From the IMG/VR virus record IMGVR_UViG_3300001525_000014, positions 32,001 to 96,000 of that record: a stretch of 64,000 nucleotides of DNA; one strand, 5' to 3'. This DNA is from a virus. The notes under the pieces are model-generated. The model searched no databases, was not told the origin of the DNA, and saw nothing but the letters and a program-made list of their open reading frames with translations. Below, piece by piece: positions 2,288 to 5,200 of this stretch. A program made the translations under genes and the position numbers. Every line of letters begins with the position of its first letter. The stretch's first letter is position 1.

Positions 2288-5200
2288 TTATTTATTACAG
2301 TCGTCCTATCTTCTCTTTCCGAGTTCTTTAAGGTCGTCTTTTATTTCCTATTCATTCTTTACTTTATAATCATTTTTAGAGAACGTCTTCTAATATACAG
2401 CTTTTATTGCATTTGCAGCTTTTAGGGCTTTATCGTATCCTACATACCCTTCTCTATCAACCCACTACCCGTTCTTGTTAACTTTGTAGTTTTGAATATT
2501 TCTAGTACCAACACCAGCAAACGATTTTGTTAATATTGGTGTATCTTCAACTTCAAATTTACCTGTTGATGAATTATACTAATACCAGCTCTCTGTTTTA
2601 AGATCATATACATGTACAGGTTTACCCTGTTTGATGCCAACCTAAACAGCCATATTAGTACCACCTTCTACAGCTTTCTGCGAACTAGTTATATTCGCTA
2701 CAGCAAATACACCATCAGACTTATCTACCTAATAGAAGTCTCTTGCAAGTAATTCTCCACCAATATTATAAGGCAACTCTCTTCCAGTTAACTGCTTTAT
2801 CTACTCTCTTGCATAGTTAGATTGTTCGTGAGTAATTGGGAGAGGCTTAACGTTTTTATCCCTGAGTGTTTTAGACATATTCTGGTTATCTATAGGTCTA
2901 AAATGGTTTATTTTTGTTAAGCCAAACGTTCTACCTATAACATCCCAATAAGTATCGCCACCATAAGCTCCTCCAGAATTAATTGTGTAATCTTGTGGAT
3001 TACCCTGCTATTTGTTGTACAAAGATATAGATTTAAGATAATCCCTCAATGTGGTCATGTATCGATTTGGCTCTAATGCTTTCAATTCAAATTCATTAGC
3101 TTCATGCCAATGGTAATCGCCCCAGTCTGTTCCTGTAATAAAATATTTGCCATCTTTGTATTTAATAGCATATTTAGAAGACCCATACCTTTTGGTTATG
3201 GTATATCTTAAAACGTTATCTCCATCAATTGTGCTATTTTCAAAATCCTTTAACTTATCAGGCTTTACTGGAAATTTATCATACTCTATTTTCTACTCTG
3301 GCTCTGTTCTAGTAAACGCATTATCCTTTAATGATCCATCCTCATTATAATAATTAAGCATCTTATCAGAATTATGATGAGCATAACAATACATACAACT
3401 AGATGCACAGTTAGAATTATACTTTAGAACATCAACTTTGCCACCATAGCAGGTACAAAGTTTACGCTGTTTATTATTATCTTCACCTTTATCTTCTATA
3501 TGCGTACCAAGGATGTTATTAACCTAATCTACAGACAAGCATCCCTATTTGCTTATTCCAGGAATTACTCCAGGTTCAGCACAAGTAGATAATTTAACTC
3601 CATACTTATTTGCTATCTATAACATCTTTTCGGATACACCTTTGACTATTTCTGGTTTAGCATTAGGCTTAAACTCTCCATTAGGAAGCTTCTCATACCC
3701 ATTCTTTTCGTAGTCATAGCCTAAGTTTTTCATAAATATAGAAGTGGTGCGATAATAGTCCATTACTGAGAATTTAACGTTCTTTATTCCTAATTCGGAT
3801 GCTCGCTTAATAAGTGCTTCAACATCTTTAATCTTTGTAACACCAGGAATAATAGGATCAATTCTCAATGTAACCATCTTAGGATCAAGACCTTGCTTAA
3901 TAAACTTTCCTACACGCTCAATCATATCCTACCACTTCATAACACCAGGCTCCCACTTAGTAGCACCAAGAGTAGTTATACTAAAGTGAATAATCTTAGG
4001 CTTTTGAATACTAAGAATTCTTCTCATTGGAAGACCATCATGCTTAGTTATAATATACATAGCATCCATATCGTTAGCAGTAAGAGTGTTTCCTCTATAA
4101 TCCTTCACTGTTGTTTTACCACTAAAGAAACCCTCAAGCTGTTTAGCAAAGAAAGCCGGGTCAGTCTTTTCGGAAGCCACAGCTATTCTCGGCTATTTAT
4201 CATTACCAGTAAATGGGTGTAATGCAAGAATTTCTTCATTAGTAAGAATTGTGTTAGGAGAACTTATGGTCTTCTAAGCATGCTAGAATGATACATTGTG
4301 CGCATTCTTGTGGTCAGTACTTACATATTTAGCCAAATCAACGGTCTTGTCATATAAGTATTTAAATAGCTGAGGCGTACGTTGTTCTGTAATCTAAGAA
4401 ATCTTGCCATTAGATAAACCAGTAGAAGGTAAATATATCTTTCTGTATTTACCCGTATCCCACTCATCCTTAATAGCCTAGAATTCGGCATCTATAACCT
4501 TTTTAAACTCTTCTATATCAGAATCATTCCATCTACCAGCATCTCTCGTTCTACCAGTTAAGGGATCGTACCAATGCTGTGTAGACACAGGCATCGCGTT
4601 ATCCATTCCTCTGATTATAGCAGCTGTAGTATTGGGGAACATCTTGCCAAGTCCATATGTCCTAGCATACTTACTGTCATTACTTATCGGGTTTTTACCA
4701 GATGTCCTGTTCGTGTTGTCACCAAATACATATAATACATCAGGATTATCATTAACCTCCTATCTAGTCCAATTACCTGGATGATATTCAATCTTTCGTT
4801 CAGCTGATTTAGGTAAAGATGGATTTTCTATATCACCAGTATAAGGATTAGCTACAGGAACACTAGATATAACAATAGCGGTCTTTCTTGGTCTAGTTAG
4901 AGCTGTATAAATAAGCTCAGACTTCTCTTGATTTGATGTAGCTGATGTGCCCATTATATCCTTCTCGTCTACTACAACTATATCGTATGTAGAACCCTAA
5001 GATTTATGGGCTGTTATAGCATAACCAAAGTCAATGTCTGCATAACGTCCTTTATACTCCCAGAATTCTTGCCAAGCTTGCCTCTTTAATATTCTATTGG
5101 TCTATCTCTTAGCCTTAGAAGCAAGTTCCTATAGCTTCTGATTATATAGATCAATATCGTTTCTAGAAACAACCTATATAACACAATCTTTTTGTTCATT

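Follow-up and report, generated by a model that had tools for sequence, protein, structure and literature searches.

Predictions in the literature assign genetic code 15 to crAss-like phages of the group considered here (PMC7886860; Borges et al., bioRxiv 10.1101/2021.08.26.457843), and two crAss-like phages have yielded peptides with glutamine (Gln, Q) at TAG positions (Peters et al. 2022, PMC9523058). In the published model, completion of the late-gene products depends on a suppressor tRNA (PMC7886860; bioRxiv 10.1101/2021.08.26.457843). The structural and lysis genes of Lak megaphages and other recoded gut clades, whose hosts are standard-code Bacteroidota, likewise have TAG for Gln (bioRxiv 10.1101/356790; Borges et al.). 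Here we examine the in-frame TAG codons in 64,000 nucleotides (nt) of IMG/VR virus record IMGVR_UViG_3300001525_000014, positions 32,001 to 96,000 of that record; this whole stretch is called the window, and coordinates below are those of the window unless a related locus is named. The comparisons that follow make it very probable that this phage uses code 15, with TAG as a Gln sense codon and TAA and TGA as the sole terminators.

Judged from its sequence, the window is the late-gene block (virion, packaging and lysis) of a crAss-like phage, Crassvirales, Suoliviridae, near Burzaovirus faecalis cr124_1. The assignment follows from cr124_1 being the nearest GenBank record, with 83% identity in the DNA of the structural block and 91% identity in the large terminase (TerL) protein. 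Membership in Crassvirales is judged by TerL, portal and major capsid protein, and here it is supported by the nucleotide and TerL identity to cr124_1. All genes are located on the minus strand, and GC skew is negative across the whole window. The open reading frames (ORFs) on which the argument draws most heavily are given below with their lengths in amino acids (aa).

57208–59271, minus strand: large terminase gene g7, 687 aa with 10 TAGs, 91.4% aa identity to cr124_1 TerL
54733–57204, minus strand: portal gene g8, 823 aa with 17 TAGs, aligned with the portals of relatives
49534–51069, minus strand: major capsid gene g12, 511 aa with no TAG, its Gln codons being 16 CAG and 2 CAA
2288–20515, minus strand: giant ORF g31, 6,075 aa with 124 in-frame TAGs and a TAA end
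1–2282, minus strand: ORF g32, cut by the window start

Read with the standard code, minus-strand ORFs of at least 100 aa span 27.2 kb, and the longest is 514 aa. When only TAG is read through, ORFs of this class span 67.2 kb and the longest extends to 6,084 codons; neither TGA nor TAA read-through yields a comparable gain in minus-strand ORFs of at least 100 aa. The window then resolves into 32 contiguous ORFs, which carry 397 in-frame TAGs in 21,214 codons. All 31 complete ORFs terminate at TAA or TGA, none of them needs read-through of either codon, and within tblastn matches to 142 related loci there are essentially zero in-frame TGA or TAA codons. The middle of the giant ORF (g31 residues 2390–4570) is homologous to gp01 of cr124_1.

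The identity of the decoded amino acid is clearest where TAG falls on residues that homologues hold invariant. The initial annotation had placed one such codon on the Gln of helicase motif V in g31, and had proposed a second in a small HExxH protein, g5. The relevant features are as follows, with [TAG] marking the codon in translated strings.

4859–6259, minus strand: Dda/RecD/Pif1-like superfamily 1B (SF1B) helicase domain of g31, from Pfam and PDB matches
6137–6163, minus strand: Walker A motif of this domain, GKAGTGKTT
5672–5674, minus strand: TAG at the motif IV Gln (RVR[TAG]GE), the homologues have Q here in 112/119 and R just before it in 119/119
4997–4999, minus strand: TAG at the motif V Gln (YAITAHKS[TAG]GSTYD), Q in homologues and in PDB helicases
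4886–4909, minus strand: motif VI of this domain, YTALTRPR
59972–59974, minus strand: TAG at the invariant Gln of HExxHxxQ (HESIHTA[TAG]) in g5, which occupies 59786–60145
55285–55287, minus strand: TAG at portal residue 640 (QPAM[TAG]NGAS), Q in 15/15 standard-code loci

The SF1B assignment rests on Pfam AAA_30 (46.3 bits) and UvrD_C_2 (38 bits), both over the cut-off, and on PDB matches to 9kwf, 8jx6 and 3upu; the domain has the Walker A motif, motif V, the TR of motif VI and the AAA_30 plus UvrD_C_2 architecture expected of the family. In an alignment of 120 homologues with identity of at most 44%, the motif V column is Q in 116 of 116, within the consensus Y-A-I-T-(S/A)-H-K-S-Q-G-S-T-Y, and it is also Q in all five SF1B helicases from the PDB that were aligned, Dda and Bacteroides Pif1 among them. 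The motif V codon therefore does sit on an invariant Gln, as had been proposed. The helicase domain has no counterpart among the fetched crAss genomes. The C-terminal 1,500 aa of g31 join this domain to DUF7831 and DUF1848.

The Gln proposed for HExxHxxQ proteins also proved correct, as the column is Q in 120 of 120 full-length homologues from a protein database search. In related loci, the same g5 column is occupied by TAG (30), CAG (12), CAA (4) and GAA (12), and the other two TAG columns of g5 are N/Q and Q/E/D in the 120 homologues. No HExxH homologue is present in the fetched standard-code loci, and the protein matches no Pfam family. The 120 homologues, which start with MKI(V/I), are some 106 aa long; the true start of g5 is probably Met14, at 60106. 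Finally, portal column 640 was read across 136 loci and contains CAG in 83, CAA in 42 and TAG in 11, with nothing else.

Since protein databases may write Q at TAG by code-15 convention, the wider comparison was made at the DNA level. We sorted 142 related loci by the presence of in-frame TAG within tblastn matches to the window proteins, in which TAG was written as X. Of these, 127 are recoded and 15 have no in-frame TAG at all; the latter include the cultured phages crAss001, DAC17, FpV4 and phi14:2. In the TAG-free loci, 577 residues align to 107 window TAG columns, and 131 of them (22.7%) are Q; in the same 15 loci the background frequency of Q is 4.2%, and Q at true CAA/CAG columns reaches 29.9%. 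Each of the 20 amino acids was then scored by its empirical substitution profile over the TAG columns. Gln has the best log-likelihood, with Glu 183 units behind and Lys 237, and in a bootstrap over columns it wins 2000 of 2000 replicates. The initial annotation had claimed that TAG occupies Gln positions and had proposed alignment with standard-code homologues as the check, and the claim holds in that alignment.

A further view comes from L068, a TAG-free locus with 79–84% aa identity to the window: of the 20 TAG columns in TerL and portal, 14 are Q there, and each other residue occurs at no more than three. This locus (IMGVR_UViG_3300028886_000991) is 4.5 kb long, with 79% portal identity, and it has zero in-frame TAGs in 1,076 aligned codons as opposed to about 14 per 1000 in relatives. 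From the TAG-free state of L068, recoding seems to have been gained or lost over a short evolutionary distance.

The recoded relatives reveal a similar pattern at the level of codons. Window TAGs align to TAG 959 times, to CAG 676 times and to CAA 429 times, followed by AAA (95) and GAA (90). CAA differs from TAG by two substitutions and is still much commoner than the one-step neighbours AAG, GAG, TAT, TTG, TGG and TCG. TAG swaps mainly with CAG and CAA, as synonymous codons do, and the comparison made in reverse agrees.

TAG is not evenly distributed among genes. It makes up 37% of the putative Gln codons in the window overall and 0% in the capsid gene, and in the 127 recoded relatives the capsid gene contains 0.8 TAG per 1000 codons versus about 14 in TerL and portal. 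These figures suggest that TAG may be selected against in the most highly expressed genes. A second gene, g17 (45311–46441, minus strand), is also free of TAG, and the Gln codons of g17 and of the capsid gene are almost exclusively CAG. In cr124_1, the replication genes on the opposite strand have 14 TAGs in 7,628 codons versus 102 in 5,284 for the late genes, and zero coding sequences (CDSs) terminate at TAG. The counts for this late-gene bias come from cr124_1 only, the window being the late block alone, and the bias fits the published suppressor-timed late-gene model.

The window also contains strings of TAG and mixtures of TAG with the canonical Gln codons, several of which had been cited as support for decoding as Gln.

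1893–1901, minus strand: three successive in-frame TAGs in ORF g32, followed by CAA at 1890–1892, read from the sequence
14108–14113, minus strand: tandem TAG-TAG in g31
15392–15397, minus strand: tandem TAG-TAG in g31
36058–36063, minus strand: tandem TAG-TAG in g20 (2,497 aa, 52 TAGs)
47215–47253, minus strand: C-terminal tail of g15, with TAG-TAG at 47248–47253 and TAG at 47227–47229 among CAA codons, and a TAA end
55180–55182, minus strand: TAG within the Gln-rich portal tail QEQM[TAG]QQQQ, read from the sequence

Every codon string and tandem position quoted in the initial annotation is present on the minus strand where it had been placed. One correction concerns the portal tail, whose string had been written backwards, as QQQQ[TAG]MQEQ, and reads QEQM[TAG]QQQQ from the N to the C terminus. 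The translation of 47215–47277 ends N-Q-[TAG]-[TAG]-Q-Q-R-P-K-Q-[TAG]-E-A-E-stop. TAG-TAG adjacency is observed 10 times versus 7.8 ± 2.7 expected from within-gene shuffles; since tandem TAG occurs at its expected frequency, it is not depleted and behaves as an ordinary sense codon. By the same shuffles, TAG adjoining CAA or CAG is weakly enriched (34 versus 25.1 expected, P about 0.05). From the tandems we infer that suppression of TAG would be efficient.

The relatives indicate what the suppressor may be. ARAGORN finds tRNAs with the anticodon CUA, tRNA(CUA), in 54 of the 127 recoded loci and in 0 of the 15 standard-code loci, the stretches fetched being partial genomes. In cr124_1, this tRNA is annotated as tRNA-Gln (47896–47967) and sits immediately upstream of that genome's late block; in L194, the window's nearest relative (88% nt identity), it is located 3.1 kb past the point corresponding to the window end. 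We searched 185,579 genomes for the first 26 nt of type A, the commonest kind of tRNA(CUA). The scan returned 51 tRNAs, consisting of 21 tRNA-Gln(CTG), 18 tRNA-Gln(TTG) and 12 further tRNA(CUA), with no other isotype. All 39 cellular tRNAs are tRNA-Gln, and the isolate Gabonibacter massiliensis is among the hits of the scan. Outside the anticodon arm, the cr124_1 tRNA(CUA) is nearly identical to Bacteroidales tRNA-Gln(CUG), and 27 of 28 positions agree in its T arm and 3' acceptor strand, although the 3' half was not used in the search. The anticodon stem of the phage tRNAs differs from that of tRNA-Gln, and their anticodon loop reads CUCUAAA or CUCUAAC. The corresponding isotype comparison for type B and type C suppressors was left unused, as the library is dominated by tRNA-Gln by construction.

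Such a body shows that the putative suppressor of this lineage descends from a tRNA-Gln of the host clade. The initial annotation had named identity elements for another amino acid as grounds for rejecting Gln, and the tRNA-Gln body in these closest relatives speaks against them. The glutaminyl-tRNA synthetase (GlnRS) of E. coli recognizes U1-A72, G2-C71, G3-C70, G73 and U35. The relatives' tRNA(CUA) has U1-A72 (or U1-G72), G2 and U35 from this set and differs at C3-G70 and A73; these two features are the same in Bacteroidales tRNA-Gln itself.

Type A tRNA(CUA) identical to that of crAss-like phages also occurs in 12 contigs that are filed in bacterial metagenome-assembled genomes (MAGs), several of them about 100 kb long. 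They include L165 and L180, in Segatella copri MAGs and about 101 kb in length, with others within L145–L191. These contigs are probably phage genomes that were binned with their host, and the binning hints at Segatella and Prevotellaceae as hosts. Next to tRNA-Met and tRNA(CUA), ARAGORN also reports tRNA-like genes that have 2-nt or 4-nt "anticodons" (aa, ca, taaa, tgaa) and unusual anticodon loops, as follows.

L009, 2168–2240: tRNA-like gene
L011, 2556–2629: tRNA-like gene
L015, 1442–1514: tRNA-like gene
L016, 1785–1857: tRNA-like gene
L024, L033, L034, L037 and L040: further tRNA-like genes

An annotated transfer-messenger RNA gene is present in cr124_1 (L001, 34357–34713, minus strand), with the tag peptide GNVNNIVDYTNVA, which is notable given the read-through of a stop codon.

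Taken with general knowledge of amber suppression, these data are consistent with the following course of events. The phage would carry a tRNA(CUA) of its relatives' kind just past the window end. The host GlnRS would charge this suppressor, which keeps C34 and U35 from the Gln anticodon, and late in infection the charged tRNA would outcompete release factor 1. Late proteins would then be completed only after the suppressor is expressed.

Several observations weigh against this reading of TAG as Gln. Most of the window TAG columns are variable, and Q, while the commonest residue there, amounts to just 22.7%. Conservation reaches 60% or more at only 8 TAG columns of the structural genes, 3 of which are Q. 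TerL column 334 is R in 5 of 5 TAG-free loci; in recoded relatives it alternates among R codons, TAG, CAG and CAA. In the helicase, the column at NNT[TAG]TTKF is F in 87 of 120 homologues, although it falls in a divergent, poorly aligned loop where the alignment is doubtful. Nor do the window's proteins have a deficit of Gln for TAG to make up, as counting TAG as Gln lifts Q to 5.5%, compared with 4.2% in TAG-free homologues. An argument from such a deficit fails, because CAA and CAG alone already give 4.1% Q versus 4.2% in standard-code homologues over the aligned regions. There is no tRNA in the 64-kb window, so that this phage's own suppressor is unseen. The parent contig was sought with an exact 50-mer from the window end in IMG/VR and a metagenome collection, where only 88%-identical relatives matched, and exact-protein look-ups with two code-11 fragments and the capsid protein gave no match. 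Finally, some related Suoliviridae phages have a tRNA(CUA) of class-II shape, 89–91 nt in length and with a long extra arm.

L063, 45566–45656, minus strand: long-arm tRNA(CUA)
L014, 2054–2142: long-arm tRNA(CUA)
L083, 988–1078: long-arm tRNA(CUA)
L120, L135 and L137: further long-arm tRNA(CUA)

The four unique long-arm sequences fold into a cloverleaf with an extra arm, supported by compensatory changes in 10 of 25 pairs, and their best match in Rfam is tRNA-Sec, at 37.6 bits and below the cut-off of 47. The CUCUGAA within the extra arm was considered as a second Gln anticodon loop and rejected, since the consensus fold with its compensatory changes makes this an ordinary extra arm. In cr113_1, L014 and L083, the long-arm tRNA is the sole tRNA(CUA) found, and the TerL of L014 is 83% identical to that of the window. 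The TAG columns of loci that have this tRNA fit Gln, and not Ser, Leu or Tyr. We consider it unlikely that the long-arm tRNA decodes TAG as Gln in these sister lineages and that the window's own suppressor could be of this kind. Were it the decoder, Gln would be charged on a long-arm tRNA in Bacteroidales, or formed there by another route.

A different possibility is that the phage has no tRNA-Gln(CUA) of its own for TAG, and that decoding would fall to a host suppressor or near-cognate read-through and would be leaky or ambiguous, so that TAG would serve mainly as an expression throttle. Recoded genomes with no detectable suppressor have been published (PMC7886860; bioRxiv 10.64898/2026.08.21.746148), the window contains none, and in 73 of the 127 recoded loci there is no tRNA(CUA) in the fetched stretch, though the absence is weak evidence given that these loci are partial genomes. 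The avoidance of TAG by the most abundant virion protein is consistent with costly or incomplete decoding as well. However, an ORF of 6,075 aa with 124 TAGs, together with the triple and tandem TAGs, demands near-complete decoding, and in all the nearest relatives the late block has the tRNA at its head. On balance, decoding that does without a phage tRNA is improbable.

Somewhat less probable still is a sense reading of TAG as an amino acid other than Gln (Glu, Lys, Tyr, Ser, Leu or pyrrolysine, for example). Glu and Lys are the next commonest residues at the TAG columns (67 and 63 of 577), and the class-II shape of some relatives' tRNA(CUA) recalls the tRNAs for Ser, Leu and Tyr. The substitution profiles nevertheless place Ser 340 log-likelihood units behind Gln, and Tyr and Leu more than 700, in addition to the margins given above for Glu and Lys; TAG occupies invariant-Q columns; and the preference for Gln over Ser, Leu and Tyr persists in the very loci that have the long-arm tRNA. 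ARAGORN labels the CUA tRNAs "Pyl", but it does so from the anticodon alone, and the body of the tRNA is that of tRNA-Gln. Pyrrolysine was accordingly rejected as a candidate, since these CUA tRNAs combine an ordinary cloverleaf with the body of tRNA-Gln and Q fits the TAG columns; no search for pyl genes was made. The notion that the TAGs are real stops and the long ORFs artefacts (pseudogenes, assembly errors or intron-split genes) has nothing more in its favour than the standard-code reading itself and can be set aside, given that homology in TerL, portal and other genes crosses TAGs in one frame without TAA or TGA, that 127 independent related contigs have the same pattern, and that conservation at TAG columns is specific to an amino acid.

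Decoding of TAG as Gln, as preferred here, has practical consequences for annotation. The window needs translation table 15, as its genes are otherwise fragmented, including the one for the 6,075-aa virion protein with its SF1B helicase domain. Earlier publications, with proteomics among them, already cover the recoding, its bias towards late genes and its Gln identity, and the window adds a further Delta-group (Suoliviridae) genome. The results add no new principle; they provide a DNA-verified confirmation that the published assignment holds for a Burzaovirus-like lineage.

The published recoded crAss-like phages resemble the window in the in-frame TAGs of their TerL, portal and tail genes, which align best with Gln; as a group they have a recoded late block, replication genes that are almost free of TAG and a tRNA(CUA) upstream of the late block. 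We see no substantive difference between them and the window, the tRNA of the window's phage presumably lying outside it. Among GenBank records, the likeness is closest to cr124_1 (NC_055899.1), with about 83% nt identity in the structural block, the same gene order and CDSs that are annotated through TAG. The two differ in that the N-terminal 2,390 aa and C-terminal 1,500 aa of g31, as well as g32, are without counterpart in cr124_1. The Lak megaphages and the other recoded clades, by comparison, are unrelated lineages with much larger genomes, and some encode a release factor 2, of which none is seen in the window. An older parallel is supE (glnV) of E. coli, a tRNA-Gln with a CUA anticodon that inserts Gln at UAG, where GlnRS still recognizes C34 and U35. 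The tRNA(CUA) of the relatives has the same combination of a tRNA-Gln body and a CUA anticodon, but its anticodon stem and loop are rebuilt and are not the product of a point mutation alone. Whereas supE suppresses rare nonsense mutations, the phage tRNA serves hundreds of sense TAGs.

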